From contig VBBY01000021.1 of NCBI GenBank assembly GCA_005881595.1, positions 39,977 to 103,976 on the forward strand: a stretch of 64,000 bases of DNA, written 5' to 3'. Positions 26,071 to 51,868 of the stretch are shown here, in pieces. The notes beneath the pieces are model-generated. The model saw only the letters and a program-made list of their open reading frames with translations. It ran no database searches and was not told the DNA's origin. The position numbers and the translations under genes are program-made. Numbering within the stretch: position 1 is the first letter of the stretch; the number at the start of each line of letters is the position of its first letter. The DNA comes from Betaproteobacteria bacterium (GTDB lineage: Bacteria > Pseudomonadota > Gammaproteobacteria > Burkholderiales > SG8-39).

Positions 26071-26826
26071 GTGAGGGAAGGATCCGCGAACGAGGCTGCA
26101 GTGCGCGTTGCCGCGCTGGCAAAGCGCTACGGCAAGCTCGATGCTTTGAAACGCGTCGATCTCGACGTGCCGGCGGGCGAGGCGTTCGGCCTGGTGGGCG
26201 CCAACGGGGCGGGCAAGACCACGCTCATCAAATGCGCGCTCGACCTCTGCGCCTACGACTCGGGCAGCGTTGCGATCTTTGGCGTCGCCGCCCGCCTGCC
26301 GCAGGCGCGCCGGCGCCTGGTCTACCTTCCGGAGCGCTTCGTGCCGCCGCACTACCTGCGTTGCCGGGAGTTCCTCGAGCTGATGCTGGAGCTCTCGGGG
26401 GCCCGTTACGAGCCGGCGCGCGCGCGACGGCTGCTGGAGGAACTGGAGCTCGAGCGCGACGTGCTCGAGCGCCCGGTGCGGCAGCTGTCGAAGGGGATGA
26501 CGCAGAAGCTCGGCCTCGCCTCCTGCTTCCTGGTCGAGCGCGACCTCTTTGTTCTCGACGAACCGATGAGCGGCCTTGACCCCGCCACCCGGGTCGCGGT
26601 GAAATCGGTTCTGCGCCGACTGAGCGCTGAAGGCAGGACGCTGTTCTTTACTTCGCACGTTCTCGCCGACGTCGAAGAGCTCTGTTCGTCCATCGCGGTG
26701 CTGGACCAGGGAACGGTCCGCTTCCGCGGCTCGCCGGCGGCGCTTTGCGCGCGTTACGCGCAGACTCACCTGGAGCGGGCGTTCATGAGGTGCATCCGTG
26801 ACGACGAATCCGCAGCCGGCGCCTGA
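26071..26826 (+). CDS. Orphan ABC transporter ATP-binding protein (ABC-2/CcmA-like)
   Basis: 251 aa with a GTG start. Walker A GANGAGKTT, signature LSKGMTQKLG, Walker B LFVLDEPMSGLD, H-loop TSHVL. No adjacent permease. The 3' end overlaps the next gene by 29 nt. Confidence 0.88.
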   Translation: MREGSANEAAVRVAALAKRYGKLDALKRVDLDVPAGEAFGLVGANGAGKTTLIKCALDLCAYDSGSVAIFGVAARLPQARRRLVYLPERFVPPHYLRCREFLELMLELSGARYEPARARRLLEELELERDVLERPVRQLSKGMTQKLGLASCFLVERDLFVLDEPMSGLDPATRVAVKSVLRRLSAEGRTLFFTSHVLADVEELCSSIAVLDQGTVRFRGSPAALCARYAQTHLERAFMRCIRDDESAAGA

Positions 26827-28204: not shown

Positions 28205-28206
28205 CG

Positions 28207-29616: not shown

Positions 29617-29715
29617 ACAGGACCAGGAAAACGCCAGCAGGACAGGTGCTTAGACCACTTTCCTCAAGTTGGTATCGTGCTATGCTTCGCAGCGGGAGGG
29701 AAGCTAGGCGGTGCA

Positions 29716-31467: not shown

Positions 31468-31468
31468 C

Positions 31469-32791: not shown

Positions 32792-32862
32792 CACTTTCTG
32801 ACTGCGGTCGTGGATTCTGACCTGCGGCCAATACTGGTGCCCGATATCATTGTTCCGTCCGG

Positions 32863-34572
32863 ATGAACTCACCCACCAATCCGCAGGCAAAGCGGCACAT
32901 CGGCCAGATCCTGATCGACCAGGGCATCCTGACCGAGGACCAGCTGCGCATCGCGCTGCTCGAGCAGACCAAGCAGCACATGCCGGTAGGAAGGCTGCTG
33001 GTGCAGCTCGGCTTCGTGTCCGAGGCGACGCTGCGCGATGCGCTGTCGGAAAAGCTCGGGCTGCAGTCGGTGGACCTGGGACGCATCATCGTCGACCCGG
33101 CGGCGCTCAAGACGCTGCCGCGCGACATGGCGCGGCGCTACCGCGTGTTCCCCGTAGCGCTCGACCGCCAGCAGAAAAAGTTCATCGTCGCCCTCTCCGA
33201 CACCAATAACATCGTCGCGATCGACCAGCTGCGCGCGCACCTGAAGGGCGAGTTCGAGGTCGAGCTGCGCCTCGCCGGCGACACCGAGATCGACCGCGCC
33301 ATCGAGCACTACTACGGGCACGAGTTCTCGATCGACGGCATCCTGAAGGAGATCGAGACCGGCGAGGTCGACTACACGACCATCGTCGACGGCGACGAGT
33401 ACTCGCAGCCGGTGGTGCGCCTGATCTCGGCGCTGCTCGCCGACTCGGTGGAGCGCGCCGCCTCGGACATCCACTTCGAGCCCGAGCAGAACTTCCTGCG
33501 CATCCGCTACCGCATCGACGGCGTGCTGCGCCAGATCCGCTCGCTGCACAAGACCTACTGGCCGGCGATGGCCGTGCGCATCAAGGTGATGGCGAAAATG
33601 AACATTGCCGAGACCCGCGCGCCGCAGGACGGCCGCATCTCCGCCACCATGTCGGGCCGCGTCGTCGACTTCCGCGTCGCCAGCCTGCCGACCAGCCACG
33701 GCGAGAACCTGGTGCTGCGCATCCTCGACCGGCAAAAGGGCATCGTGCCGCTCGACAAGCTCGGCCTGGAGGAGGAGCAGCTCGAGCTGCTCAAGCGCAT
33801 GATCGCCCGGCCGGAGGGCATCATCCTGGTCACCGGGCCGACCGGGAGCGGCAAGACCACGACGCTCTACTCGATCCTCAACCACATCAACTCCGACGGC
33901 ATCAACGTGATGACGCTCGAGGACCCGGTCGAGTACCCGATGACGCTGATCCGCCAGACTTCGGTGGCCGAGGCGGCGAAGCTCGATTTCGCGAACGGCA
34001 TCCGCGCCATGATGCGCCAGGACCCCGACGTCATCCTGGTCGGCGAGATCCGCGACCAGGAGACCGCCGAGATGGCGTTCCGCGCCGCGATGACTGGCCA
34101 CCAGGTGTACACGACGCTGCACACCAACTCCGCGGTGGGCGCCTTCCCGCGGCTGCTCGACATCGGCATCGTGCCCGACACCATGGCGGGCAACATCATC
34201 GGCATCCTAGCGCAGCGCCTGGTGAGGAGACTGTGCCGCACCTGCCGGCAGTCCTATGACCCGGACGCTCGGGAGCGCCGGCTGCTCGGCGTGGCGCCCA
34301 CCGAGTCCGCAGCGCTCTACCGCGCAGTCGGTTGCGAGCACTGCGACTACCAGGGGTTTCGCGGGCGCCAGTCGATCCTCGAGATCCTCAAGGTCGACGG
34401 CGCGCTCGACGAGATGGTGGCGCGCCGCGCCACCGCGCGCGAGATCCTCGCTGCGGCGCGCGTCCAGGGCTTCAAGACCCTCGCCGACGACGGCGCACGC
34501 CTGGTCCGCCAGGGGGCCACCAGCCTGGACGAGCTGATGCGCGTGGTCGACCTGACCGACCGCATGGCCTGA
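32863..34572 (+). CDS. GspE/PilB/MshE-family assembly ATPase with N-terminal MshEN-like domain
   Basis: 569 aa. Walker A GPTGSGKTT, Asp box LEDPVEY, Walker B DVILVGEIRD, His box TLHTNSA, CxxC...CxxC (CRTC...CEHC). Two 24-aa MshEN-type motifs at residues 12-64. Confidence 0.95.
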   Translation: MNSPTNPQAKRHIGQILIDQGILTEDQLRIALLEQTKQHMPVGRLLVQLGFVSEATLRDALSEKLGLQSVDLGRIIVDPAALKTLPRDMARRYRVFPVALDRQQKKFIVALSDTNNIVAIDQLRAHLKGEFEVELRLAGDTEIDRAIEHYYGHEFSIDGILKEIETGEVDYTTIVDGDEYSQPVVRLISALLADSVERAASDIHFEPEQNFLRIRYRIDGVLRQIRSLHKTYWPAMAVRIKVMAKMNIAETRAPQDGRISATMSGRVVDFRVASLPTSHGENLVLRILDRQKGIVPLDKLGLEEEQLELLKRMIARPEGIILVTGPTGSGKTTTLYSILNHINSDGINVMTLEDPVEYPMTLIRQTSVAEAAKLDFANGIRAMMRQDPDVILVGEIRDQETAEMAFRAAMTGHQVYTTLHTNSAVGAFPRLLDIGIVPDTMAGNIIGILAQRLVRRLCRTCRQSYDPDARERRLLGVAPTESAALYRAVGCEHCDYQGFRGRQSILEILKVDGALDEMVARRATAREILAAARVQGFKTLADDGARLVRQGATSLDELMRVVDLTDRMA

Positions 34573-34588
34573 GCCGCCGGGAGGCCCA

Positions 34589-35794
34589 TTGCCCCTCTTC
34601 ACCTACAAGGCCATAGACGCCCGGGGCAAGAGCGTGGTGGGCCGGGTGGAGGCGGTGAACCTGTTCGATCTCGAGCAGCGCCTAGCGCGCATGGAGCTCG
34701 ATCTCGTGCTCGGCGCCCCCTCCAGCACGCGCTCCCGGCTCATCGGCGGCGGCAAAGTCACGCGCCAGGACCTGATCAACTTCTGCTTTCACCTCGAGCA
34801 GCTCGCCAGCGCCGGGGTGCCGGTCATGGAGGGCCTGGCCGACCTGCGCGAGAGCGTCGAGAACCCGCGCTTCCGGGAGGTGGTGTCCGGGATGATCGAA
34901 TCGATCGAAGGCGGCCGCAACCTGTCGCAAGCGCTCGCCGAGTACCCCGAGGTGTATGGCAGGGTGTTCGTGAGCCTCGTGCGCTCAGGCGAGCAGACCG
35001 GAAAGCTGCCCGAGGTGCTGCGCAGCCTCTCCGAGTCGCTGAAGTGGGAGGACGAGCTCGCGGCGCAGACCAAGAAGCTGTTGATGTACCCGGCGTTCGT
35101 CGGCAGCGTCGTGCTGCTGGTCACCTTCTTCCTGATGATCTACCTGGTGCCGCAGATGACCGGGTTCATCCGCAACATGGGGCAGGATATCCCGCTGCAG
35201 ACGCGCATCCTGATGGCGGTGTCCGACTTTTTCGTGAACTACTGGTGGGCCGTCGTCGCCGCGCCGTTCGCCGCCTGGTTCGGCCTCAAGCTTGCGATGC
35301 AGACGAACCCGGCCGTCGAGTACGCCGTGGACCACTACAAGATCACGATGCCGCTGATCGGCCCGATCCTGAGAAAGATCATCCTGTCGCGTTTCGCCTC
35401 GAGCTTCGCCATGATGTATGCCTCGGGCATCACGGTCCTCGACGCGATCCGCAGCTGCGAGGAAATCGTCGGCAACCGGCCCCTGGAAGCCGCCTTGCAC
35501 CGGGCCGGCCAGCAGATCGCGGAGGGCAAGAACCTGACGGCGGCGTTCCAGGATCTCGGCGTGTTCCCGGCGCTCGTGATCCGGATGCTGCGCATCGGCG
35601 AAAACACCGGGGCGCTCGACACGGCGCTGCTCAACGTCAGCTATTTCTACAACCGCGAAGTGAAGGAATCGATCGGCAAGGTGCAGGCGATGATCGAGCC
35701 GGCCCTGACGCTGGTGCTCGGCGCAATTCTCGGCTGGGTGATGCTGTCGGTCCTCGGGCCGGTGTACGACACGATCTCGAAGATGAAATTCTAG
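34589..35794 (+). CDS. GspF/PilC/MshG-family inner-membrane platform protein
   Basis: 401 aa. TTG start preceded by GGGAGG. Duplicated T2SSF repeats (...LSQALAEYPEVYGRVFVSLVRSGEQTGKL... / ...LTAAFQDLGVFPALVIRMLRIGENTGALD...), 3 TM. Confidence 0.93.
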   Translation: MPLFTYKAIDARGKSVVGRVEAVNLFDLEQRLARMELDLVLGAPSSTRSRLIGGGKVTRQDLINFCFHLEQLASAGVPVMEGLADLRESVENPRFREVVSGMIESIEGGRNLSQALAEYPEVYGRVFVSLVRSGEQTGKLPEVLRSLSESLKWEDELAAQTKKLLMYPAFVGSVVLLVTFFLMIYLVPQMTGFIRNMGQDIPLQTRILMAVSDFFVNYWWAVVAAPFAAWFGLKLAMQTNPAVEYAVDHYKITMPLIGPILRKIILSRFASSFAMMYASGITVLDAIRSCEEIVGNRPLEAALHRAGQQIAEGKNLTAAFQDLGVFPALVIRMLRIGENTGALDTALLNVSYFYNREVKESIGKVQAMIEPALTLVLGAILGWVMLSVLGPVYDTISKMKF

Positions 35795-35796
35795 CC

Positions 35797-37356
35797 ATGG
35801 CCACGCGGCGCATTCTCTACTTCACGGCCGAGGACCATTACCTCTACCGCAGCGCCGGGGCGGGGCTCGAGCTGGAGACGAAGTTCTCCGGCGACGACCT
35901 CGGCGTCACGGCGTTCCGCGAGCACCTGCGCGGCCTGAAGGGCGAGCTGTTCTGCGTGCTGGTCGATGTCGCGGGCGAGGACTTCCACGAGGACCAGATT
36001 CCGTTCCTGCGCGGCGGCGACCGCGAGGCGGTGCTGCAGCGCCGGCTGGCGCAGCGCTACCGCGACACCCGGCTCGCCGCGGCGCTGTCGCTCGGCTACG
36101 TGGCCGGCACGCGGCGCAACGAACGGCTGCTGCTCGCCTCGTTCACGAACACGCAGCAGCTTGCGCCCTGGCTGGATGCGCTGGAGGAAGCGGGCACCAA
36201 GCTGACCGGCGTCTACTCGGTGCCGCTGCTCGCGCCGGCGCTGGCGCGCAAGCTGGGCGCGAAAGCCGGCCGCGCCTTCGTCGTCACGATCAACCGGGCG
36301 GGGTTGCGGCAGTGCTTCATCGAGGCGGGCCGGTTGCGGTTCGCGCGCCTGGAGCGCACCGTGGACATGGTGCCGCAGGCGCTCGCCATATTCGTGCGCT
36401 CCGAGATGCTGCGGCTCGCGCAGTACCTGGGCACGTTGCGCGTGCTTCCCCGCGAGGGGCCGCCGGTGCAGGTATTCGTGGTCGCGCCGCGCGCGCAGCG
36501 CTCGACTTTCGAGCAGGCGCTGGTGTCCGACGCCCGGCTCGTGTTCCACACCGTCGACGAAGGCGAGGCGCTGCGCAGCGTCGGCGTGCGCCGTGCGCCC
36601 GAGCGGATCCTCGGTGAAGCGCTGTATCTGCATCTCGCGGCGAAAAAGCCGCCGCGCGAACAGTTCGCAAGCAGCGCCGAGCGGCGCCGCTATCAGGTAT
36701 GGCGGCTGCAGCGCGGCATCGTCGCTGCCGGCGCGCTCGGCTTCGCTGCCTGCGCGCTGTATGCCGGAGCGCAATGGATCGAGGCCTGGCAGGTGCGCGA
36801 CCGCGCTGCTAGCCAGCAGCACGACGCGCGTCTTGCCGCCGCGCAATATGGGCGCATCACCGCGGGCTTTCCGGTGACCCAGACCTCGACGGAGAACCTG
36901 AAGGTCGCGGTGGTCGAGTTTCGGCGCATCGCCGAGCGCAGCGCGTCCCCCGAGAAGGCCTTCGTGCACGTCTCGCGCGTGCTCGAGCAGTTTCCCCAGA
37001 TCGAGCTCGACAGCTTCAACTGGGGCGTGGGGCGACCGGACGCGCGGCGTGACCGACCCGCCGGCGCGCCCCCCGATGCCGCGGCCGCGAAACCCGGGCA
37101 GAGCAGCGCCGCCGAGACGCTGGAGCTTTCCGGCCGCGTCAACGCCACCCAGCGCAACGACTATCGCGCGATCACGGCGCAGGTGCAGCGCTTCGCCGCG
37201 GCGCTCGGCGCATCGCAGGGCTACGAGCTGGTCCGCACGCAGCTGCCCTTCGATATCACGTCGGAGGGCACGCTGACCGGCGACATCGGCGGCAGCAGCG
37301 CGGAGTCCGGCGAGGCGCCGCGCTTCACGGTCACGCTGGCGCGGAGGCTGCCGTGA
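35797..37356 (+). CDS. Bitopic assembly protein, GspL / fused PilM-PilN (MshI)-like
   Basis: 519 aa. About 330-aa cytoplasmic domain, one TM (IVAAGALGFAACALYAGAQWI), about 170-aa periplasmic domain. The position after the E/F genes and the topology fit GspL/MshI. Sequence homology was not verified. Confidence 0.6.
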   Translation: MATRRILYFTAEDHYLYRSAGAGLELETKFSGDDLGVTAFREHLRGLKGELFCVLVDVAGEDFHEDQIPFLRGGDREAVLQRRLAQRYRDTRLAAALSLGYVAGTRRNERLLLASFTNTQQLAPWLDALEEAGTKLTGVYSVPLLAPALARKLGAKAGRAFVVTINRAGLRQCFIEAGRLRFARLERTVDMVPQALAIFVRSEMLRLAQYLGTLRVLPREGPPVQVFVVAPRAQRSTFEQALVSDARLVFHTVDEGEALRSVGVRRAPERILGEALYLHLAAKKPPREQFASSAERRRYQVWRLQRGIVAAGALGFAACALYAGAQWIEAWQVRDRAASQQHDARLAAAQYGRITAGFPVTQTSTENLKVAVVEFRRIAERSASPEKAFVHVSRVLEQFPQIELDSFNWGVGRPDARRDRPAGAPPDAAAAKPGQSSAAETLELSGRVNATQRNDYRAITAQVQRFAAALGASQGYELVRTQLPFDITSEGTLTGDIGGSSAESGEAPRFTVTLARRLP

Positions 37357-37961
37357 CCCTGACGCGCGAAGAGCTCAGGAAGCTGCTGCTGCCGGGCCTC
37401 GCCGCGTTGGCGCTGGTCGCCGCCGGCGCCGGCCTGGTGTGGGGCGCCCAGCAATCGGTGCGCAGCGCCCTGCTGCGGCTTGCCGCGGCCGAGGCCGACC
37501 GCAGGGAAAGCACCGAACGCCTGACCCGCATCGCGGAGGAAGAGCGCGAGGTCAAGGAGAAGCTCGACGTCTATCAGCAACTGAAGCAGCTCAACATCCT
37601 GGGCGAGGAGCACCGGCTGGAATGGGCCGACGCCATCACCCGCATCCGCACTCAGCGCGAGCTGCTCGACCTGCGCTACCGCGTCGACCGGCAGAAGCTG
37701 CTGATCTCGGCGCCCGGCAAGCCCGCCAACGTGGATTTCTACGCCAGCACCATGAAGGTGGAGCTCGCTCTGCTGCACGAGGAAGACCTGCTGCGCTTCC
37801 TTGCCGATCTGCGCGCCTCCGGCAATGCGTACTACTCGGTGAAGCAGTGCCTGATCACGCGCACCGGCCAGGCGGCCACCGGCGCCTCCATCGTGCCGCG
37901 GCTGCGCGCCGATTGCGAGATCGACCTGATCACGATCATCGACCGGGCGGCCAAGCGATGA
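37353..37961 (+). CDS. Bitopic assembly protein, GspM / PilO (MshJ)-like
   Basis: 202 aa, GTG start with a 4-nt overlap. N-terminal TM (LLLPGLAALALVAAGAGLVWG), coiled coil (RIAEEEREVKEKLDVYQQLKQL), C-terminal globular domain. Confidence 0.6.
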   Translation: MTLTREELRKLLLPGLAALALVAAGAGLVWGAQQSVRSALLRLAAAEADRRESTERLTRIAEEEREVKEKLDVYQQLKQLNILGEEHRLEWADAITRIRTQRELLDLRYRVDRQKLLISAPGKPANVDFYASTMKVELALLHEEDLLRFLADLRASGNAYYSVKQCLITRTGQAATGASIVPRLRADCEIDLITIIDRAAKR

Positions 37962-38392
37962 AGCCAGCGCTCGTCTTCCTGCTCGGCCTGTCGCTCGCTG
38001 CGGCGGCTGGTCCCTGCGGGGCGCAGGAATTCGGCCGCCTGTTCTTCACGCCGGAGCAGCGCGCCGCGCTCGACGCCCGGCGCAAGGCGCGCGTGCCGGA
38101 CAGGCCGGCCGCAGCGCCGACCGTCGCTTCGCCCACTACGCGACTCGACGGCTACGTGGTCCGCTCCGAGGGTCGCTCCACGGTCTGGGTAAACGGTGAA
38201 TCGCTCCAGGACGGCTCGGCCGAGAGGCTGCGCGATCCGGGCCGCAGCGGCGACGGGCGAGTGCGCGTGCCGGCCGGTGACGGCGGGGCGCGCATCGGAT
38301 TGAAGCCGGGAGAAGTGCTCGACCGCGGCACCGGTGAAGTGCATGACCTGATCGGCGACGGCGAAATCAAGGTGCGGCGTGGCCGGCCCTGA
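37958..38392 (+). CDS. Small periplasmic protein, PilP / GspC-HR / MshK-like candidate
   Basis: 144 aa. Signal peptide MKPALVFLLGLSLAAAAGPCGA, LFFTPEQRAALD, Pro-rich spacer, beta-rich C-terminus (LDGYVVRSEGRSTVWVNGESL...IGLKPGEVLD). ATGA overlap with the upstream gene. Confidence 0.55.
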   Translation: MKPALVFLLGLSLAAAAGPCGAQEFGRLFFTPEQRAALDARRKARVPDRPAAAPTVASPTTRLDGYVVRSEGRSTVWVNGESLQDGSAERLRDPGRSGDGRVRVPAGDGGARIGLKPGEVLDRGTGEVHDLIGDGEIKVRRGRP

Positions 38393-40145
38393 GCGCCTTG
38401 GCGTGCGGCGGCTGCAACGCGGTGCCGCGTTGCTGCTGCTGCTCGCTGTGCTGGTGCTGGGCGCGTCATGGTTCCTGGTTTCGCGGCTGGACGCGATAGC
38501 CGGTGCATTCACGGCGATCGACCGCAACCGCAATGCGACGGTCCTCAGCCAGGCGAAGCAGACGTTGATCGGCTACGTTGCCCTGCAGGCGGTCAAGGCC
38601 GGAGAAGACAGCCCAGGACGCCTGCCATGCCCTGAAGCGCCGGGAAATATAGCCACCGCAAATGAAGGCCAGGCCGCTGCAGCCTGCACGCTGCCTGCGG
38701 TGGGTCGACTGCCATGGCGAACGCTCGGTCTGGACAAGCTGGTGGACTCCAGAAGCGAGCCGCTGTGGTACGTCGTTTCTCCCGGGTGGGCAATCACCGC
38801 CGGAAACCTGCTCATCAACTCGAACACCATCGGCCAGCTGAATGTCGACGGGCAGGCCAACGCCGCGGTGGCCCTGATCATCGCCCCGGGTGCGGCGATG
38901 AACGTCGCGGCGAGCGCAGGCTGCACTGCCCGCAACCAGGCGCGCAGCGCTCCGGCCCCGACCATGGACGCGCGCGATTACATCGAATGCTTCAATACCG
39001 GCACGTCGACGTTCGCCACGACCGGGCCGACGACCTCGTTCAACGACCAGGTCGTTCGCATCACTGCTGCAGACGTGATGCCGGGAATCGAGGCAGCGAT
39101 CGCGTCTCGCGTGGAGCGCGAAATCGCGCCGCTCCTGAGAGGCGTCTATGCAACGAATAGCTGGGGAGCAAACGTCTCGGCCGGCAATCCGGTATATCCC
39201 TTTGCCGCGCCTTTCGCGGATCCGTCGCTGACCGCGAGCTATCAGAGCAGCAGCGCCTCGTGCGCGGGCGGCGTCTGCAAGGGCCTGCTGCCGGTCATGT
39301 TTTCGAGCGCCCCGGGCACCAGCACGCCTTGCACGCCGAGCGCGGGATCGCCGTGCGATCCGACCTTCGTGCGCTGGGTGAGTCCACCCGCCCCGGTATT
39401 TGCCCGCACCGGCGGTGCCGCGCTGGGTCCCCCGGCCCCGACCTGCTCGGTGCTCGCTGCGAGCGTCGACTGCACCATCTTTGCCAGCGGGCCCCTTGTC
39501 GGCCTGCCCGCGCCGATGACCTTCACCTTGGCTGCGACGGCGAGCAAAGTCGGCATGGCGCTGCGCAAATTCGACACGACAGTCGCCATGACCGGCATAG
39601 ATCCCGCGGGCAGGAGCATAGTGAGCGCGCCGATGGCCTCGGACGGCTCCGCGCGGGTGACGCTGAGCGGCAGCATCCCGATCAGCGGCGGCAACGTCAT
39701 CTCCAACGCGCTTTGCACTTTCCTGGGGCTGACGTGCTACCAGATGAACATCAGCATGCCGATTGCGCTTCTGGCCGATCATCCCGTGCTGAATTCCACC
39801 GACCCGGTCACCGGCTGGTTCATGCGCAACGAGTGGTACCGCGTCCTCTATTACGCCGCCGCACAGACTACAACGCCGGCTGCGCTTCCGACCGCGCCGG
39901 CCTGCACCCCGGGAACCAACTGTGTCACGGTCAGCAACCTGGCTCCCGCCGACAACAAGCGCGCCATCCTGATTCTCACCGGGCGCAGCATCAACGGCAG
40001 CGCGCGCCCGAGCGGCACTCTCGCCGACTACCTGGAATTCGGCAATGCCGCCGGCAACTTCGAGCGCCAGCCGGTAAGCACCGCGGTCGACGCGGCGGTG
40101 AAGAAGCCCTTCAACGACCGCATCGTCGTCGTCGACGTCAACTGA
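38379..40145 (+). CDS. Large Cys-rich GspK/PilX-like minor-pilin-like protein (possible tip or adhesin subunit)
   Basis: 588 aa (GTG at 38379, alternative GTG at 38403). N-terminus RRLQRGAALLLLLAVLVLGASWFLVS resembles Glu5-less GspK/PilX-type anchors. About 18 Cys. It shares the motifs GRLPCPE, AILILTGRS and FNDR with the next gene. Confidence 0.7.
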   Translation: MAGPERLGVRRLQRGAALLLLLAVLVLGASWFLVSRLDAIAGAFTAIDRNRNATVLSQAKQTLIGYVALQAVKAGEDSPGRLPCPEAPGNIATANEGQAAAACTLPAVGRLPWRTLGLDKLVDSRSEPLWYVVSPGWAITAGNLLINSNTIGQLNVDGQANAAVALIIAPGAAMNVAASAGCTARNQARSAPAPTMDARDYIECFNTGTSTFATTGPTTSFNDQVVRITAADVMPGIEAAIASRVEREIAPLLRGVYATNSWGANVSAGNPVYPFAAPFADPSLTASYQSSSASCAGGVCKGLLPVMFSSAPGTSTPCTPSAGSPCDPTFVRWVSPPAPVFARTGGAALGPPAPTCSVLAASVDCTIFASGPLVGLPAPMTFTLAATASKVGMALRKFDTTVAMTGIDPAGRSIVSAPMASDGSARVTLSGSIPISGGNVISNALCTFLGLTCYQMNISMPIALLADHPVLNSTDPVTGWFMRNEWYRVLYYAAAQTTTPAALPTAPACTPGTNCVTVSNLAPADNKRAILILTGRSINGSARPSGTLADYLEFGNAAGNFERQPVSTAVDAAVKKPFNDRIVVVDVN

Positions 40146-40966
40146 TGCGGGCACGCCAGCGCCTCCCGGGCAGCGCCGGTTTCAGCCTGGTCGAGCTGGC
40201 GATCGTGCTGCTCGTGGTGACGCTGATGCTGTCGAGCCTGCTGTACACGCTGTCCGCGCAGACCGAGCAGCGCAATTTCGAGGACACCCGCCGGCGCCTG
40301 GAGCAGGCGCGCGAGCTGGTGCTCGCGTTCGCGATCGTCAATGGGCGCCTGCCCTGCCCTGCGCGCGCGAACAGCGCCGGCGTCGAGGTGCGCAACGCCG
40401 CGGGCGAATGCAAGGATGCGGCAAACGTCGAGGACTATTACGGCGGCACGCCAGGCGGAGTCGTCGGCGGTCTCCTGCCCGCGGCAACGATCGGCTATCC
40501 GACCCTCGACGCTGGCGGATTCGCGCTGGATGCGTGGCAAGCCGCGCCGCAAAACCGCATCCGCTACGCCGTGGCGAAACTCATCACCAATTGCTCGGGC
40601 ACCTCCACGCTGCCGCACTTCGAGAACGCCACCAACCTGAAGGGCAACGGCATCAGCTGCCAGCCGAACGACCTGCTCATCTGCAAATCGGCGACCGGCA
40701 TTACCCCCATCGCCTGCGGCGGCAGCGCGAATCAGATCATGAGCCAGAGCCTGGTCGCGGCGGTCATCTTTTCGACCGGCAAGAACGCCACCACCACGGG
40801 CGGGACCGGCGCGGACGAGCTCGCCAACCTGAACGGCGACCAGATATTCGTCTTTCACCCGCCGGCGCCCAGCGGCGCGGCCAACGGCGAATTCGACGAC
40901 CAGTTCACCTGGATCACGGTCGGCGAGCTCTACGGCAAGCTGATTGCCGCAGGTGTGCTTCCCTAG
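40145..40966 (+). CDS. Prepilin-type N-terminal cleavage/methylation domain protein (minor pilin or pseudopilin)
   Basis: 273 aa. MRARQRLPGSAG|FSLVELAIVLLVVTLMLSSLLY (class III signal with Glu5). GRLPCPA motif and multiple Cys. ATGA overlap with the upstream gene. Confidence 0.85.
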   Translation: MRARQRLPGSAGFSLVELAIVLLVVTLMLSSLLYTLSAQTEQRNFEDTRRRLEQARELVLAFAIVNGRLPCPARANSAGVEVRNAAGECKDAANVEDYYGGTPGGVVGGLLPAATIGYPTLDAGGFALDAWQAAPQNRIRYAVAKLITNCSGTSTLPHFENATNLKGNGISCQPNDLLICKSATGITPIACGGSANQIMSQSLVAAVIFSTGKNATTTGGTGADELANLNGDQIFVFHPPAPSGAANGEFDDQFTWITVGELYGKLIAAGVLP

Positions 40967-42681
40967 GCGGCGGGTCCGGTCAGCGCGAAGCAGACGTCGC
41001 CGTCCAGGTTGCTCTCGAGAGCGAGCTGATAGCCGCTCGACTCGGCCTGGCGCGCCGCCTGATACAGGCCGATGCCCAGGCCGCTCGCGGATTCCACCGG
41101 GGCGCGCATTAGCGTCGACTCCATTTCGCGCGGCACGGCGCTTCCAGAATCGCGCACCCGCAGGGCGATGCTGCTGTCCCAATCGAGGGAGACATGCACG
41201 CGCGTGGCGCGCTTGGCGAGCGCGTTGCGGATCAGGTTATCGGCGACGCTGTCGAACAGCGAGCGCGGCACGCGCGCGTCCTGCGGCAGCTTCCTCGCCT
41301 CGAACTCGACGCCTTCCCCGCGGTACTGGCGGCCGAGCGCGTCCCACCAGGCTTGCGCGGGCACGTAGGTTTCCCCGGCGGCGTTCGGGCGCTGCAGCTT
41401 GGCGAGCGTCTCGGACAGCCGCTGGGTGATCAGCGGCAGCTGCCGCCGGATCAGCGCCTGCAGCTGCGTGGAATCGCGCTCATGGTCGCGCGCCGCGACC
41501 GAGCAGAGCACGTTCAGCGACTGCAGCAGGTTCTTGATGTCGTGCGTCATGCGCGCGCCGGTCTCGTGCACCGCCTGGACATAGCTCGCCTGCCGCAGCT
41601 GCTCCTCGCGCAGCTTCGCCATGTAGAACTCGCCGAGCAGCTGGCCGAGCAGGTGCAGGTGCCAGAGCAGCGCCGGGCTCAGGCGGTAGCGCGAGTAGAT
41701 GCGCAGCGAAACGGCGCTGTTCTCGAAGTCGACGGCATGCGGTGTGCGCTCGCCTTTTTCGCCGCTCGCCTCGGCGGCTTTCCAGCTCACGCCGGACACC
41801 GACGGCAGGCGCGCGAGGCCGCTGAGCGCCTCGACGAGAAAGCGTTCCGGGCGCGCTTCGCGCTGCAGCAGCTCGGCGAGGAAATGCAGCCACTGCTCCA
41901 CCGGCAGGCCGATGGAGAACAGATAGCGCACGAAGAACACGTTCAGCCCGGCGAACCCGCTGCGCGGGTTCCACGCCAGCCCGACGAGCAGCACCGCACC
42001 GGCGGTCAGGAACACGGTGTAGGTGAGCGCTTCCAGATAGCCGGTTCGCCTCAGCGTCATGAAGGTGAAGCTGCCCAGGATCACCACGCCCAGCAGCAGC
42101 ATCAGGAACATGCTGTAGAAGAAATCGATCACCTGCGCCGTATCCGCCGGCTCGGGCTCCGCCGGAAGCGCCAGAATGAGCACGAACGCAAGCGGCAGCA
42201 GATATTCGGCGGCGCTGCGGATCTCGGGGCTGATTTCCGGGCTCGGGGCGATCTCGGGCAGGATCACCACCGCGAGCAGCGCGAGAAGATACGCCAGCAC
42301 CACCAGGTAGCTCAGCCGCTGCCAGCGCGCGTGGTGCTGGTAGACCTTGCCGCCCACCAGTCCGGCAAGCACCACCACCCAGAACGCGAGCAGCCACCAG
42401 TCGAGCGCCAGCATGACGCCAAACGCGACCAGCGAAAGGATGAAGCCCTGCATCGGCGAGATGCGCTGCTCGGCGCGCAGGAACGGCTGCCACAGCAGCA
42501 GCAGGCCGAGGTGCACGAGGAGGAGCGCTCGCGCCCATGGGTCGGCGACGCCGCGGAACACCGCGACGTGAAGCGTGGCGAGCATCGCCGCGACCACCAG
42601 GCGCCAATAGTCCTGGCTGAAAGCCCAGACGCTGTTGGCCAGGCGCGCAAACACCGGCTCGGAGAGATGCGCGGGTTGCAT
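40963..42681 (-). CDS. Polytopic sensor histidine kinase (PrsK-like architecture)
   Basis: 572 aa. About 8 N-terminal TM helices with very short loops. H-box MTHDIKNLLQSL, N-box DNLIRNALAK, G-boxes RDSGSAVP/GLGIGLY. Converges on the pilin-like gene with a shared CTAG. Confidence 0.88.
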   Translation of the reverse strand: MQPAHLSEPVFARLANSVWAFSQDYWRLVVAAMLATLHVAVFRGVADPWARALLLVHLGLLLLWQPFLRAEQRISPMQGFILSLVAFGVMLALDWWLLAFWVVVLAGLVGGKVYQHHARWQRLSYLVVLAYLLALLAVVILPEIAPSPEISPEIRSAAEYLLPLAFVLILALPAEPEPADTAQVIDFFYSMFLMLLLGVVILGSFTFMTLRRTGYLEALTYTVFLTAGAVLLVGLAWNPRSGFAGLNVFFVRYLFSIGLPVEQWLHFLAELLQREARPERFLVEALSGLARLPSVSGVSWKAAEASGEKGERTPHAVDFENSAVSLRIYSRYRLSPALLWHLHLLGQLLGEFYMAKLREEQLRQASYVQAVHETGARMTHDIKNLLQSLNVLCSVAARDHERDSTQLQALIRRQLPLITQRLSETLAKLQRPNAAGETYVPAQAWWDALGRQYRGEGVEFEARKLPQDARVPRSLFDSVADNLIRNALAKRATRVHVSLDWDSSIALRVRDSGSAVPREMESTLMRAPVESASGLGIGLYQAARQAESSGYQLALESNLDGDVCFALTGPAA

Positions 42682-42716
42682 TGGCGGGATCCCGCGACTA
42701 GTCTACAAATGAAAAC

Positions 42717-43478
42717 ATGCCAGCTGCCATTCTCGCCCGTTTCGTGCTGCTGGAGGCGCGCCGCGGCGGCCTGCCCTGGCTCGCTGCCGCGAGCATCGCC
42801 CTCGCCCTCGGGCTGGCGGCATTTCTTTCGCAGGTGGCGGTCACCGAAAGCCTGGCGCTGCAGGCTTCGATCGTCGCGGCGCTGCTGCGCGCGAGCGCCG
42901 TGTTCCTGATCGCCGCGCACGTGGCTTCCAGCACGCTGCGCGAGCTCAACGACAAGGAGCTCGAGCGGATGCTGTCGCTGCCGCTGTCGCGCTCCACGCA
43001 ATATCTCGGGCGACTCGCCGGCTTTGCGCTGTGCGGGGCCGCGCTCGCCGCGGCCTGCGCGGCTCCGCTGCTGCTCTGGGCGTCCGCGGGCACGGTGGCG
43101 CTATGGGCACTGTCGCTCGCCTGCGAGACTGCACTGGTCGCTGCGGCGGCACTTTTTTTCTCCATGACGCTCGCACAGCTGGTGCCCGCGATTGCGGCGA
43201 GCGCCGGGCTCTACGTTCTCGCCCGCTCGATGGCCGCGATCCAGTCGATCGCCGGCGGCCCGCTGGCTGAAGCTTCGCTGCCGCACGAGGTGGCGCGCTG
43301 GGCCGTCGATGCGATTGCGCTGCTTCTGCCGCGGCTCGAGACAGTGACACGCACCGGGTGGCTGCTCTATGGCCCGCCAGACGCCGGGGCCTACGCGGCC
43401 GCGCTCGCCGGGCTGATGCTGTACACGGGGCTCCTGATCGCGGCCGGCCTGTTCGATTTTCACCGGCGCAACCTGTGA
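42717..43478 (+). CDS. ABC-2-type permease-like membrane protein
   Basis: 253 aa, about 6 TM. N-terminus ILARFVLLEARRGGLPWLAAASIALAL is typical of ABC2_membrane (NosY-like) permeases. No adjacent ATPase. Confidence 0.7.
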   Translation: MPAAILARFVLLEARRGGLPWLAAASIALALGLAAFLSQVAVTESLALQASIVAALLRASAVFLIAAHVASSTLRELNDKELERMLSLPLSRSTQYLGRLAGFALCGAALAAACAAPLLLWASAGTVALWALSLACETALVAAAALFFSMTLAQLVPAIAASAGLYVLARSMAAIQSIAGGPLAEASLPHEVARWAVDAIALLLPRLETVTRTGWLLYGPPDAGAYAAALAGLMLYTGLLIAAGLFDFHRRNL

Positions 43479-44200
43479 ATCGCGACGCGCGAGCACTCGC
43501 CTGCGTGCCGTCATGGGTATGGCTCGCGCTCGGGCTCAGCCTCGCTGCGCAGCTCACCTGGCAAAGCACGCGCCAACCCGCGCCGCCGGCCGCCGCGGAT
43601 CTCCCCCCGCCGCCGCCGGTGCAGGCCCTGCGCCTGGCGAGCTTCGGCGAGCCGGAGGCGGCCGCGCGTCTCGTCACGTTATACGTCCAGGCTTTCGACC
43701 TGGGCGGAGGAAACGCGCTGCCCTACAAGAACCTGGATTACCGCCGGCTTGCCGGCTGGCTGCGCGCGATACTCGAGCTCGACCCGCGCAGCGAGTATCC
43801 GCTGTTTCTCGCGGCGCGCGTGTATGCGGAAGTTCCCGATGAGGCGCGCAGTCGCATCGCCCTGGAATTCGCGTACCAGGAGTTTCTCAAGGATCCCAAC
43901 CGGCGCTGGCCGTGGCTTGCCCACGCCGCGCTCCTTGCCAAGCACCGGCTGGGGGACCTGGCGCTTGCGCGCCGCTACGCTGCGGCTATCGACCGCTACA
44001 CGACTTCGGAGGACGTCCCCCTGTGGGCCAGGCAGATGGAGATCTTCATCCTCGAGGACATGAGCGAGCTGGAGGCGGCGAAGATCATGATCGGCGGGCT
44101 GCTCGCAAAAGGGGCCATCCGCGATCCTGCCGAGGCCCGGTTCCTCAAGCAGCGGCTCGACGAGCTGGAGGCGCGTATCGCTCGCGGGACGAAAAGATAG
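43475..44200 (+). CDS. Membrane-anchored helical-repeat (TPR-like) hypothetical protein
   Basis: 241 aa, GTG start in a GTGA overlap with the permease. N-terminal TM (VPSWVWLALGLSLAAQLTW), Pro-rich spacer, alpha-helical repeats. No recognised family. Confidence 0.6.
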   Translation: MNRDARALACVPSWVWLALGLSLAAQLTWQSTRQPAPPAAADLPPPPPVQALRLASFGEPEAAARLVTLYVQAFDLGGGNALPYKNLDYRRLAGWLRAILELDPRSEYPLFLAARVYAEVPDEARSRIALEFAYQEFLKDPNRRWPWLAHAALLAKHRLGDLALARRYAAAIDRYTTSEDVPLWARQMEIFILEDMSELEAAKIMIGGLLAKGAIRDPAEARFLKQRLDELEARIARGTKR

Positions 44201-44204
44201 AAAG

Positions 44205-44240
44205 TGTCGAAGGACCGACGCTGTTGTCGGGAACTCGACG
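44205..44240 (+). promoter_or_regulatory. Two tandem dyad repeats TGTCG-N6-CGACG (candidate enhancer/UAS for the sigma-54 activator)
   Basis: TGTCGaaggacCGACG (44205-44220) and TGTCGggaactCGACG (44225-44240). They are spaced exactly 20 bp apart, with centres about 80 and 60 bp upstream of the -24 GG. An AT-rich tract (44251-44290) lies between them and the promoter. Confidence 0.4.
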
Positions 44241-44291
44241 CCGTTGCCTCGTAAATTGATGTCCTGGCGGCTTTTTTGACCCATTTTTGCG

Positions 44292-44307
44292 TGGCACGGA
44301 TGTTGCA
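44292..44307 (+). promoter_or_regulatory. Sigma-54 (-24/-12) promoter
   Basis: TGGCACGgatgTTGCA matches the consensus TGGCACG-N4-TTGCW exactly. It lies 39 nt upstream of the pilin ATG, with SD AGGGGAG at 44332-44338. Confidence 0.78.
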
Positions 44308-44345
44308 AGTAGGCTATCGCCTGGACGGTCCAGGGGAGATTGGCA

Positions 44346-45056
44346 ATGAAGAAAAGAGGGCAGGGCTTCACGCTGGTGGAGATCGCGATCGTGCTGGTGA
44401 TCATCGGGCTGCTGCTGGGCGGCATCCTGAAGGGGCAGGAAATGATCACCCAGGCGAAGATCAAGAACGTGATCGCGGATTTCTCCGGCGTCTCGGCGGC
44501 CTACCACGGCTACCAGGACCGCTACCGCGCCATTCCCGGCGACGACCCCAACGCCGGAACGCGCTGGACGACCGCGCCCGCCGCGCAGCCTGGCGATGGC
44601 AACGGCGTGGTCGGGGGAACTTATAACAATGCCTGCCCCACGGTCGTCGCTGCTGGCACTGCGGAAACGTGCAAGTGGTGGGACGATCTGCGGCGCGCAG
44701 GGTTCGTTTCCGGCAACGGCCCGCAGCAGCCTTTCAATGCGGTCACCGGCCTGATAGGCGTACAGACCGGCGACGGCGCGGGCCCGCCGAGCGGGCCGGT
44801 GCTGGGGGTTGGTGGGACCGGCGCGGGCGGATTCTCCGGGCTCATCATCTGCTCGGCGAACCTGCCCGACAAGATCGCGATTGCCGTCGACACGCAGATG
44901 GACGACGGCCAACGCCTGTCCGGTTCCGTGCGCGGTCAGCAACAGTCGGCGCCCAACCCCGCGATCGCCGTTGACGCCACCGCCGCCGGCTCAGGCGGCA
45001 ACAACAACTACGCGGAGACCGGCACCAACACCTACGTCCTCTGCCGCGCGTTCTAG
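44346..45056 (+). CDS. Type IV pilin / pseudopilin (probable major subunit)
   Basis: 236 aa. MKKRGQG|FTLVEIAIVLVIIGLLLGGILKGQEMI (class III signal, Glu5). Two Cys pairs, including a C-terminal D-region-like pair (IICSANL...YVLCRAF). The track ORF starts 6 nt earlier at a TTG. Confidence 0.9.
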   Translation: MKKRGQGFTLVEIAIVLVIIGLLLGGILKGQEMITQAKIKNVIADFSGVSAAYHGYQDRYRAIPGDDPNAGTRWTTAPAAQPGDGNGVVGGTYNNACPTVVAAGTAETCKWWDDLRRAGFVSGNGPQQPFNAVTGLIGVQTGDGAGPPSGPVLGVGGTGAGGFSGLIICSANLPDKIAIAVDTQMDDGQRLSGSVRGQQQSAPNPAIAVDATAAGSGGNNNYAETGTNTYVLCRAF

Positions 45057-47032
45057 CCGCGCAGCAGCCGCACTTCCGCGGCGGCGAGCGATTCAGGATC
45101 GCCGAGAAGCACGACCACGTCGCCGGCTTGCAAGGCACCCGCCCCTGCAGCGGTCAGCTTGCTGCGCGCCCCGCGCCGGCGCACGGCCCTCACCTGCACG
45201 CCTAGCGCGTCGAGCCCGAGCTGCGCGAGCGGCCTGCCGAGGGCGTGGGCGTGCTCATCGAGCGTGACCGAGTGCAGGCGCGCAAGCGCTTCGCCGTCGC
45301 CGTCGAGCTCGTCGCCGCTGCCGTGGAACAGGCCGCGCAGCAGCTGATACTGCTCGCCGCGCACCTGGCTCATGCGGCGCATGACGCGGCTGAGCGGAAC
45401 GCCGACGAGCACCAGCGTGTGCGAAGCCAGCATGACGCCCGACTCGAACGCCTCGGGCACGACTTCGGATGCGCCGGCTGCGGTAAGACGGGGAATATCG
45501 TCCTCGTCGCGCGCGCGCACGATCACCGGCACCGCTGGATTGAGCGCGTGAATATGGGTAAGCACGCGCACCGCGGCATCGACGTCGGCGAACGTCACGA
45601 CCACGCCCGCAGCCCGCGCGATGCCGGCTGCGACCAGCGCCTCGCGACGCGAGCTGTCGGCGAAAACCACCGCGTCGCCGGCGAGCGCCGCCTCGCGCAC
45701 GCGCTCCGGATCGAGATCGAGCGCCACGTAACGTACGCCTTCGGCGTCGAGCAGCCGCGCAAGGCGCTGCCCGTTGCGCCCGTAGCCCAGGACGATGACG
45801 TGACGCTCGACCTCGATCGACTGCGCCGCGATGCGATGCAGCTCGAGCGAGCGCAGCATCCACTCCGCGCCCGACAGGCGCATGACGATGCGGTCGCTCG
45901 CCGCGATGAGGAACGGCGTCGCGAGCATCGAAAGGATCATGGCGGCGAGCAGGCCCTGCAGCACTGGCTCCGGCACCACCCGCGTCGGCGCCGCGAGCGA
46001 CAGCAGCACGAAGCCGAATTCTCCCGCCTGGGCGAGGGCGATCCCGACGCGCAACGCGGTGCCCGGCGCGCTGCCGAACGCGGTCGAAAGCAGCGCGATG
46101 AGCGCGAACTTGGCGCCGACTAGCAGCGCGAACAGAAGCATCACCAGCGGGAACTCGCCAAGCACCAGGCGCAGATCGAGCATCATGCCGACCGTCACGA
46201 AGAACAGCCCGAGCAGAACATCGCGGAAGGGCTTGATGTCCTCCTCGACCTGGAAGCGGAACTCCGTCTCGGAGATCAGCATCCCGGCGAGAAACGCCCC
46301 CAGCACGAGAGACAGGCCCGCCAGGCCGGTGACAAAGGCGAGCAGCAGCGTCACGAGCAGCACGTTCAGGACGAACAGCTCGTTCGAGCGGCGGCGCGCG
46401 ACGATTCCCAGCCAGGCGCGCATCAGCCTTGGCCCGAGGGTGATCACGACCGCGAGCGCGAGCACCGCCTTGCCCAGGGCGATGGCGAGCGCCGCACCGA
46501 GCGCGTCGGCGGATTGGTCGAGCGCGGGAAGCAGCACCAGCAGGGGAACCACCGCGAGGTCCTGGAACAGCAGCATGCCGATGACCTGGCGGCCGTGCGC
46601 CGTGTCGAGCTCGAGACGCTCGGCGAGCAGCCTGGAGACCATCGCGGTCGAGGACATCGCGGCGATGCCCCCGAGGGTGAGCCCCGCCTGCCACGAGGCG
46701 CCGGCGGCAAGCGCGGCGCCGAGCGCAAGCGCTATCGTCGCGCTCACCTGGGCAAGGCCGAGCCCGAATACCGCGCGACGCATGGCGAGGAGCTTCGGCA
46801 AGCTGAATTCGAGCCCGATCGAGAACATCAGGAACACCACGCCGAACTCGGCGAGCCGGCGGGTTTCCTCGATGCCGGAGACCAGCCCCAGCGCGTGCGG
46901 GCCCAGGGCGAGGCCGGTCGCCAGATAGCCGATCATCGGCGGCAGCTGCAGGCTCCTGCAGACCGCCACCGCGAGCACGCTGCTCGCGAGCAGCACGAGC
47001 ACCGATTGGAGGGAAACGACCGCGGAATCCAT
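45053..47032 (-). CDS. Monovalent cation:proton antiporter-2 (CPA2) K+ efflux protein with TrkA-N/TrkA-C domains (KefB/YbaL-like)
   Basis: 659 aa, about 12 TM (...GYLATGLALGPHALG...EFGVVFLMFSIGLEFS...). RCK domain HVIVLGYGRNGQRLARLL, C-terminal TrkA-C. Confidence 0.9.
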   Translation of the reverse strand: MDSAVVSLQSVLVLLASSVLAVAVCRSLQLPPMIGYLATGLALGPHALGLVSGIEETRRLAEFGVVFLMFSIGLEFSLPKLLAMRRAVFGLGLAQVSATIALALGAALAAGASWQAGLTLGGIAAMSSTAMVSRLLAERLELDTAHGRQVIGMLLFQDLAVVPLLVLLPALDQSADALGAALAIALGKAVLALAVVITLGPRLMRAWLGIVARRRSNELFVLNVLLVTLLLAFVTGLAGLSLVLGAFLAGMLISETEFRFQVEEDIKPFRDVLLGLFFVTVGMMLDLRLVLGEFPLVMLLFALLVGAKFALIALLSTAFGSAPGTALRVGIALAQAGEFGFVLLSLAAPTRVVPEPVLQGLLAAMILSMLATPFLIAASDRIVMRLSGAEWMLRSLELHRIAAQSIEVERHVIVLGYGRNGQRLARLLDAEGVRYVALDLDPERVREAALAGDAVVFADSSRREALVAAGIARAAGVVVTFADVDAAVRVLTHIHALNPAVPVIVRARDEDDIPRLTAAGASEVVPEAFESGVMLASHTLVLVGVPLSRVMRRMSQVRGEQYQLLRGLFHGSGDELDGDGEALARLHSVTLDEHAHALGRPLAQLGLDALGVQVRAVRRRGARSKLTAAGAGALQAGDVVVLLGDPESLAAAEVRLLRG

Positions 47033-50470: not shown

Positions 50471-51868
50471 ATGAAGCCGTCCCTGCAGTTCCGGTTGTCG
50501 CAGCATCTCACGCTAACTCCGCAGCTGCAGCAGTCCATCCGCCTGCTGCAGCTGTCGACGGTCGAGCTCAACCAGGAGATCGACCGCATGCTGATGGAGA
50601 ACCCGGCGCTCGAGCGCGAGGACGCCGAAGGCGAGCCCGAGGCCGCCGCACCCGCGCCCGCGCCGGCAGGCGGCGCCGGCGCGGGCGGCAGCACCGAGCC
50701 CGCGGCCCCCGACACCGACTGGTCGGCGGATATCGCCTCCAGCTGGCGCGGGCCGGATGACGATGACGAAGGCGACCGCAGCTTCACCGCGCCGGACACG
50801 CCGACGCTGCGCGATCACCTGCGCGGCCAGCTCTCGCTCACCAATCTCGGCGATCGCGACCGCGCATTCGTCCAGCTGCTGATCGACGCCCTCGACGAGG
50901 ACGGCTATCTGACCCAGCCGCTCGAGGAAATCGCCGCGCTGCTGCCCGCCGAAGCCGATCCCGAGGAGCTCGGCATCGCGCTCAGGCACCTGCAGAACCT
51001 GGAGCCCGCCGGCGTGGGCGCGCGCTCCCCCGGGGAATGCCTGGCGCTGCAGCTGCGCATCATCCCCGATGAGCCGGCTCGGCGCCTGGCGCTCGACATC
51101 GTGGAAAAGCATCTGGAGCTGCTGGCGAGCCGCGATTACACGCGCCTCAAGAACCTCACCGGCGCGGGCGACGAGGCGCTGCGCGCGGCGCAGCGCCTGA
51201 TCCAGGCGCTCAATCCGCGCCCGGGCGCCGCCTACGCCAAGGTGGAGACGCGCTACGTGATTCCCGACGTCATCGTGCGCAAGCAGCGCGGCGTCTGGCG
51301 CGCGAGCCTCAATCCGGACGCCATGCCGCGCCTGCGCATCAACCGCCTGTACGCCGAGCTCGCGGCTGGAGCGCGCACCAGCGGCGCCGCCATCGCCTCG
51401 CAGCTGCAGGAGGCGCGCTGGCTGATCAAGAACGTGCAGCAGCGCTTCGACACCATCCTGCGCGTATCGCAGGCGATCGTCGACCAGCAGCGCCATTTCC
51501 TCGAGCACGGCGAAGTCGCGATGCGGCCGCTGGTGCTGCGCGAGATTGCGCAGACGCTCGGGCTCCACGAAAGCACCATCTCGCGCGTCACCACGCAGAA
51601 GTACATGGCCACACCGCGCGGCACTTTCGAGCTCAAGTATTTCTTCGGCAGCCACGTCGCCACCGAGGCCGGTGGCGCCGCGTCCTCGACCGCGATCCGC
51701 GCGCTGATCAAGCAGCTGGTGGCCGCCGAGGACGCGAAAGCCCCGCTTTCGGACGCGCGCATCTCCCAGATCCTCGGCGAGCAAGGCATCGTGGTGGCGC
51801 GCCGCACGATTGCAAAATATCGTGAGGCGCTGCAGATCCCGCCTGTCAACCAAAGAAAATCCCTATAG
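50471..51868 (+). CDS. rpoN: RNA polymerase sigma-54 factor
   Basis: 465 aa. [29 protein letters not shown], acidic/Ala-rich region II, HTH and RpoN box [16 protein letters not shown]. Confidence 0.97.

Follow-up and report, generated by a model that had tools for sequence, protein, structure and literature searches.

That pilin genes can be transcribed from sigma-54 promoters under the control of a two-component activator is well established (PMC6058289, PMC6528607, PMC7170775). In the PilS-PilR/pilA system, described in Pseudomonas aeruginosa and also in Geobacter, Xanthomonas, Lysobacter and Myxococcus, the major pilin gene has a -24/-12 promoter, an NtrC-class response regulator binds upstream of it and a multi-pass membrane kinase is its partner (PMC6058289, PMC7170775). 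At pilE of commensal Neisseria, the Nps/Npa system combines RpoN, a response-regulator activator and a kinase with a bend between the activator site and the promoter, produced there by integration host factor (IHF; PMC6528607). A third arrangement, the 'PEP-CTERM box' of PrsK/PrsR (Haft et al. 2006), was predicted by comparative genomics and again pairs a regulator with a multi-pass kinase; there a motif that is sometimes repeated stands ~63 nt upstream of a sigma-54 motif, and a short leader connects the latter to a single-gene unit (PMC1569441). For one PEP-CTERM-box gene, in a Burkholderiales strain, later work located the start site and demonstrated that expression depends on RpoN (PMC9850573). 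Here we describe a control region of this general kind upstream of the gene for a type IV pilin-like protein in a 64,000-nucleotide stretch of DNA (henceforth the window; contig VBBY01000021.1, positions 39,977 to 103,976) from an uncultured Betaproteobacteria bacterium assigned to Burkholderiales. The pilin gene lies in an unstudied pilus locus (window positions 26071-45056), and the promoter in front of it, as judged from its sequence, is a genuine and evolutionarily conserved promoter of the sigma-54 type, accompanied by two predicted activator dyads.

The elements of the region, in window coordinates, are the following.
44205-44220: distal dyad TGTCGaaggacCGACG, an exact match to the pattern TGTCG-N6-CGACG, centred at about -105.5 from the predicted transcription start
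44225-44240: proximal dyad TGTCGggaactCGACG, also an exact match and better conserved than the distal dyad, centred at about -85.5
44272-44277 and 44284-44288, plus strand: two T-runs (T6 and T5), proposed intrinsic bend
44292-44307, plus strand: sigma-54 promoter TGGCACGgatgTTGCA, with -24 element TGGCACG and -12 element TTGCA, read directly
44317-44319 (~44318), plus strand: predicted transcription start, ~12 nt past the C of the -12 GC
44317-44337, plus strand: inverted repeat in the leader, with core CCTGGAC-g-GTCCAGG at 44320-44334, running into the ribosome-binding site
44333-44339: ribosome-binding site GGGGAGA
44346 (ATG) to 45056 (TAG), plus strand: type IV pilin-like protein of 236 amino acids (aa) with Pfam N_methyl and NCBIfam prepilin domain matches

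The promoter agrees with the consensus TGGCAC-N5-TTGCW at 12 of 12 positions, its GG (44293-44294) and GC (44305-44306) dinucleotides being 10 nt apart. The sequence TGGCACGGATGTTGCA at 44292-44307 on the plus strand is the sole exact match to TGGCACG-N4-TTGCW on either strand of the 64 kb, and the window holds no further match with a single mismatch. No sigma-70-like promoter was found in 43900-45400. Scanning species-representative genomes for pilin homologs gave 80 loci, of which 71 share the gene order kinase (minus strand), permease-like gene, gene without family match, pilin and kefB-like gene (minus strand); we refer to these as the syntenic loci. The pattern GG[CT]A[CT]-N6-TGC precedes the pilin ATG in nearly all 71 of them, while a stricter pattern demanding TTGC[AT] proved too strict, matching only 19 of the 80 loci. 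The window was also scored with position weight matrices (PWMs) derived from orthologs, with neither the window nor its closest relative among the training loci. The window promoter scored 16.3 bits, the next best site (10.5 bits) lying in a coding region on the opposite strand. By the same measure the promoter is kept in 69 of the 71 syntenic loci of other species, its GG ~52-60 nt (about 55) before the pilin ATG in most of them, and column by column the -24/-12 bases are near-invariant across orthologs.

The dyads show the same combination of rarity and conservation. Exactly two exact copies of TGTCG-N6-CGACG occur in the window, both of them here. As ~0.6 would be expected, a single copy on its own would be unremarkable; two copies placed 20 bp apart (start to start), 52 bp upstream of the window's only -24/-12 site, are remarkable. 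With the ortholog-built PWM the pair scored 33.5 bits against 8.1 for the next best position in the window. Two dyads of the form (T/C)GT(C/T)(G/A)-N6-(C/T)GAC(G/A) lie upstream of the ortholog promoters in essentially all loci: the PWM found the pair in 68 of the 71 syntenic loci, and the remaining three have a spacing of 19 or 21 bp. (The PWM has a fixed 20-bp spacing and therefore misses such cases, namely L011, L018, L074 and L087, which were confirmed by eye or by a flexible search.) The geometry is tight: the spacing is 20 bp in 63 of 68 loci, and 65 of 68 have 66-70 bp between the start of the proximal dyad and the GG. The distal dyad is kept as YGTYR-N6-YGACR, 20 bp upstream of the proximal one, in 63 of 68. 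In the proximal dyad each of the columns T-G-T-C-G ... C-G-A-C is kept in 56-66 of 66 ortholog sequences, and the last base is A in 19 of the 66 sites, so that the dyad there reads TGT-N10-ACA. Across the ortholog columns the half-sites are near-invariant; the flanks, like most of the spacer, are almost free of information. The initial annotation had proposed both the exact -24/-12 match and the two phased dyads from the window alone; the coordinates of both were right, and the comparison adds their conservation in a fixed arrangement.

Background levels were low. When 1176 random anchors in the same loci were scored for a dyad pair, the best reached no more than 15 of 20 (3 of 1176 reached 15), compared with an observed median of 17; among 615 random 300-nt windows from the same loci, none reached the enhancer threshold and one reached the promoter threshold. 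One alternative is that the consensus matches are chance resemblances without function. While one exact dyad is indeed expected ~0.6 times per window, an exact -24/-12 match is expected only 0.03 times (at least one match in 3 of 100 shuffles), and both elements and their fixed geometry are kept across ~70 species-level genomes while the surroundings diverge. The comparative data already contradict chance resemblance, which we regard as extremely improbable.

A conserved pair of dyads with fixed spacing has the look of an enhancer for a bacterial enhancer-binding protein. Such enhancers consist of dyad-symmetric sites, usually at least two on the same DNA face, ~70-150 bp upstream, and the centres at about -85.5 and -105.5 fall within this range. 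The dyads also resemble NtrC sites (glnAp2, nifLA) and NifA sites (TGT-N10-ACA), which are likewise dyads for activators with a Fis-type helix-turn-helix (HTH), arranged on one DNA face. The pair occurs nowhere else in any fetched locus, being found only upstream of the pilin gene. It is absent from all nine non-syntenic pilin paralogs (9/9), and the same paralogs lack the kinase. A pilin paralog outside the conserved locus, in L047 at ~3941-4001, lies just past a tRNA-like 3' end and has a good -24/-12 element (16.4 bits) with no dyad pair within reach. In five loci (L015, L019, L022, L025 and L036) a third dyad occurs at a further 20-bp offset, giving three phased sites before the promoter. 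Tandem pilin genes follow the unknown 241-aa gene in L043, L051, L061 and L083 (also in L042 and L070), and in these genomes enhancer and promoter precede the first copy only.

Since the dyads start 5 bp past the stop codon of the upstream gene, which ends at 44200, they could in principle have another role, either as operators for a different regulator (e.g., a repressor) or as RNA or terminator hairpins of that gene. Each dyad can form a short hairpin, and a weak terminator-like hairpin is listed on the minus strand (44219-44206). However, the stems are only 4-5 bp long, they are not followed by a T-tail on the plus strand, and no plus-strand terminator was found in 43900-45400; folding of the gap region is also not better than that of shuffles (z only -1.71). 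A terminator or RNA-structure reading of the dyads was consequently rejected. Moreover, the half-sites are conserved as bases and not as compensatory pairs, and their distance to the -24 element stays constant to within +/-2 bp. The dyads are thereby linked to the promoter and not to the upstream gene, which argues against both a terminator and an operator of that gene. Overall, we consider a role other than that of an enhancer improbable.

Between the proximal dyad and the promoter, the orthologs have a GC content of 44%, compared with 68% for whole loci, and carry about five times as many T-runs as A-runs on the top strand (1.54 vs. 0.30 per spacer). The T-run centres cluster at approximately -48, -37, -28, -18 and -8 from the GG and almost never fall between these positions (Rayleigh R 0.73 at period 10, a statistic inflated by shared ancestry). 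In the window the two runs, centred at -18.5 and -7 relative to the first G, fill two of these slots. The initial annotation had noted an AT-rich tract with two T-runs at 44271-44290; the tract is present and belongs to a lineage-wide phased array, the exact extent of the runs being 44272-44277 and 44284-44288. This 10-bp phasing suggests an intrinsic bend in the spacer, which would fit the short distance between enhancer and promoter, and intrinsic bends have been proposed for IHF-independent promoters (PMC2709558). The family of pilin spacers differs in this respect from glnAp2, which is without phased A-tracts (PMC2709558). It differs also from Neisseria pilE and its IHF-made bend, in that the T-runs are conserved whereas an IHF consensus is absent from the window and complete in only 7 of 67 ortholog spacers. 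For this reason a helically phased intrinsic bend is favoured over one mediated by IHF, which we did not adopt for the window.

Proteins of the window were annotated by Pfam and NCBIfam scans, which pointed to three genes relevant to the activity of such a promoter.
26798-28204, plus strand: candidate activator, a sigma-54 response regulator with receiver, sigma-54 AAA+ and Fis-type HTH domains
40963-42681, minus strand: candidate partner kinase, a multi-pass membrane histidine kinase, weakly PrsK-like, with a Pfam HATPase_c match
50471-51868, plus strand: rpoN, encoding sigma-54 (NCBIfam sigma-54, 713 bits vs. a cut-off of 621)

The regulator has the motifs of a complete sigma-54 activator (Walker A as GESGSGKE, GAFTGA, Walker B and the Fis-type HTH) and is the only GAFTGA-containing, enhancer-binding protein in the window, in agreement with the NtrC-type activator initially proposed at this position. 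Its nearest solved relatives are NtrC-family activators, and it is closest to the NtrC and PrsR family models while scoring below both cut-offs (for TIGR02915, 348.4 bits against 502.6). A search with the regulator itself returned only homologs that were all at least 96% identical, useless for cross-species synteny, so we used the mid-locus protein encoded at 35791-37356 as query and retrieved +/-10 kb around eight homologs of ~70-74% identity. All seven of these extended loci that reach far enough upstream (7/7) encode, with the gene order of the window, the ABC ATPase, the sigma-54 regulator, the ExeA-like ATPase, the secretin, the TPR protein, MshE and GspF. The pilin end is reached in six of the eight (L081-L085 and L088), with kinase, permease-like gene, unknown gene and pilin, while the sequence of L087 breaks off early in the pilin gene. 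Regulators of the extended loci are 74-78% identical overall to that of the window, and all of them keep the nearly invariant HTH GNV(S/T)QAAKLLG(V/I)NRTTLYSRM. The sole plus-strand dyad pair in the extended loci is the one before the pilin gene (in L087 the two dyads are 21 bp apart, which is why it has no PWM hit). The initial statement that no other intergenic space in the locus has a comparable -24/-12 element likewise held: the window has no second such element or dyad pair, and neither has the scanned plus strand in five of the six extended loci whose sequence includes the pilin.

The kinase gene lies ~1.5 kb upstream of the enhancer and stands beside the ABC-2 permease-like gene in 62 of the 80 loci; against the NCBIfam PrsK model (TIGR02916) its product scores 59.7 bits, the cut-off being 300. 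The presence of regulator, kinase and rpoN is conserved. As for the RpoN claimed in the initial annotation, the protein is genuine, but its gene is not specific to the locus: downstream of the KefB-like gene follow kdsD, lptB, rpoN and ptsN, and this usual lptB-rpoN-ptsN neighbourhood marks it as the cell's ordinary sigma-54 gene rather than a part of the pilus locus.

Taken together, these observations make the regulator of the locus, by a wide margin, the best candidate for binding the dyads, which is not proof of binding. We think it likely that the 145-bp gap before the pilin gene, the largest intergenic space in the locus, is a compact sigma-54 control region in which this regulator occupies the dyads and the T-runs bend the intervening DNA. 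Sigma-54 RNA polymerase would form a closed complex on TGGCACG-N4-TTGCA (44292-44307), and the phosphorylated regulator would bind both dyads as dimers, centred at ~-85 and ~-105; as the dyads are two helical turns apart, both dimers would sit on one face of the DNA. The regulator would then assemble into an active ATPase ring, and the phased T-runs would curve the AT-rich spacer, bringing the ring into contact with the polymerase across a loop of only ~60 bp. Hydrolysis of ATP would open the promoter, with transcription predicted from standard sigma-54 promoter geometry to start near 44318, and the resulting mRNA would carry the pilin gene alone behind a leader of ~28 nt. Input would likely come from the multi-pass membrane kinase.

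Several points weigh against this model. The enhancer, at 73 and 93 bp from the -12 element, is nearer to the promoter than the usual 100-140 bp (PMC2709558). An IHF consensus is missing from the window, where two T-runs by themselves would bend the DNA only modestly. Counts of PWM recovery contain some circularity, as the loci scored also served to train the models (this does not apply to the window itself, the random-window background or the fixed distances), and because related sequences share ancestry such counts overstate the number of independent events; all relatives, furthermore, are uncultured metagenome bins. Finally, 16 kb separate the regulator gene from the promoter, and the kinase gene is not its neighbour, so that the pairing of regulator and kinase is assumed.

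The position of the regulator gene also counts in favour of a rival reading, in which the promoter is sigma-54 dependent but its dyads are bound by an enhancer-binding protein encoded elsewhere (e.g., a PilR or NtrC paralog), with the regulator of the locus controlling something else. Dyads of the type TGT-N10-AC(G/A) are generic for this class of proteins (NifA-like), sites of PilR are described as TGT-N11-AGA plus GTCT elements (PMC6058289), and the genome is visible over 64 kb only. On the other side, the regulator belongs to the locus in 7/7 extended loci, with its nearly invariant HTH, and is the only such protein in the window. As the sole detectable dyad pair in loci of 20 kb precedes the pilin gene, the regulator would otherwise be without a local target, and the pilin paralogs outside the locus are without the enhancer. 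We view control by an activator from elsewhere as unlikely and retain the locus regulator as the predicted occupant of the dyads.

The resemblance to PilS-PilR is one at the level of sequence: a pilin gene under a -24/-12 promoter, an NtrC-class response regulator (here with predicted binding upstream) and a multi-pass membrane kinase. Unlike in that system, the kinase and regulator genes are apart and flank an assembly cluster of MSHA/type II-like character, and the proteins of the locus score closest to the PrsK, PrsR and NtrC models. The dyads, two 16-bp sites 20 bp apart, also differ from the PilR hallmarks TGT-N11-AGA and GTCT (PMC6058289), reading TGT-N10-ACG and containing GTCG and not GTCT. 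Among the listed NCBIfam matches there was none to PilR or PilS models, the best being NtrC, PrsR and PrsK, and PilR itself was not part of the comparison.

The closest architectural analogue is the PEP-CTERM box of PrsK/PrsR, whose layout matches the pilin promoter region. PEP-CTERM system models are also the best or second-best match for four proteins of the locus, namely the kinase, the regulator, the TPR protein and the ExeA-like ATPase (resembling PrsK, PrsR, PrsT and TIGR03015), with all four scoring below the cut-offs. However, the 17-nt motif 1 of the box ends in TTTACA (PMC1569441), whereas the motif here is TGTCG-N6-CGACG, and the target is a prepilin and not a PEP-CTERM protein. Membership in the PEP-CTERM box or PrsR regulon was thus rejected on motif, scores and target. 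In other words, control of the pilin gene appears to work like PEP-CTERM-box systems without being part of the PrsR regulon.

One further possibility, which we raise tentatively, is that the regulator and the multi-pass kinase constitute an undescribed two-component family, related to yet distinct from PrsK/PrsR and PilS/PilR. Such a family would serve the major pilin alone, in an uncharacterised pilus of the MSHA-like kind that is widespread among uncultured soil Burkholderiales, and would act via an unusually compact, IHF-independent enhancer looping through conserved 10-bp-phased T-runs. Its kinase might sense how much pilin the membrane holds, as PilS senses PilA, or else what state the linked ABC transporter and the pilus machine are in.

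The mechanism outlined above is an ordinary and well-supported one, a known kind of pilin switch that would here operate in an unstudied pilus locus of uncultured soil Burkholderiales, and it leaves the understanding of pilin genes and sigma-54 promoters unchanged in principle. Its added value is threefold, namely a phylogenetic footprint that is strong, a geometry that is tight and includes the phased T-runs, and a candidate regulator-site pair for such a locus. This provides a testable control point, comprising a defined promoter, a 36-bp enhancer and a named candidate activator, which could be reconstituted in Escherichia coli without culturing the organisms, and offers a concrete way into a large pilus locus, so far unstudied, of abundant uncultured soil Burkholderiales. 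In addition, the ~70 natural variants form a data set on enhancer geometry, with distances kept within +/-2 bp and T-runs in helical phase, that bears on short-range action of sigma-54 enhancers without IHF.

The leader of the predicted transcript contains the inverted repeat listed above, with 10-nt arms that are 90% complementary and a predicted hairpin of -12.2 kcal/mol (z -2.5). Comparable hairpins occur in 14 of 68 orthologs (z < -1.5) and the mean z is -0.69, so that the hairpin was rejected as a conserved element. Some orthologs have a different palindrome at this position (e.g., CTTGGAG-t-CTCCAAG); in others, CTCC pairs with GGAG in the ribosome-binding site. The repeat could serve as a stabilising 5' hairpin, in translational control or as a second operator, its role being uncertain. 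No Rfam family matched the leader or the gap.

The N-terminus of the pilin, MKKRGQG/FTLVEIAIVLV..., matches the prepilin N-methylation motif, and the protein ends in ...TYVLCRAF. Its homologs number in the thousands and all come from metagenome bins of uncultured Burkholderiales or Betaproteobacteria. For a pilin it is unusually conserved: identities to the proteins of other species-level genomes (L001-L080) are 58-84% along the entire length, and the C-terminal part is no exception. The gene apparently forms a unit of its own and runs up against the convergent kefB-like gene: the two stop codons overlap by 4 nt (45053-45056), so that no intergenic terminator is possible between them.

The remaining genes of the locus and its border, whose order is conserved across species, are listed below.
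26071-26826, plus strand: ABC ATPase
28207-29616, plus strand: ExeA/MshM-like ATPase
29677-31467, plus strand: MshL-like secretin
31394-32791, plus strand: TPR protein
32863-34572, plus strand: MshE-type ATPase with a c-di-GMP-binding N-domain
34589-35794, plus strand: GspF-like platform protein
35791-40145, plus strand: several proteins without family match
~40175-40966, plus strand: minor pilin
42717-43478, plus strand: ABC-2 permease-like protein
~43475-44200, plus strand: protein without family match (stop codon 44198-44200)
45053-47032, minus strand: convergent KefB-like gene

The locus as a whole (26071-45056) is a mosaic, in which an MSHA-type secretin and a c-di-GMP-binding MshE ATPase are combined with a GspF-like platform protein. 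The halves of a putative ABC exporter are found at its opposite ends, the ATPase beside the regulator and the permease-like protein beside the kinase. Proteins of ~521, 202, 144, 588 and 241 aa (35791-40145 and ~43475-44200) have no Pfam or NCBIfam match, and their order is the same in every related locus. The one of 241 aa has an N-terminal hydrophobic segment, and its gene always stands directly before the enhancer.

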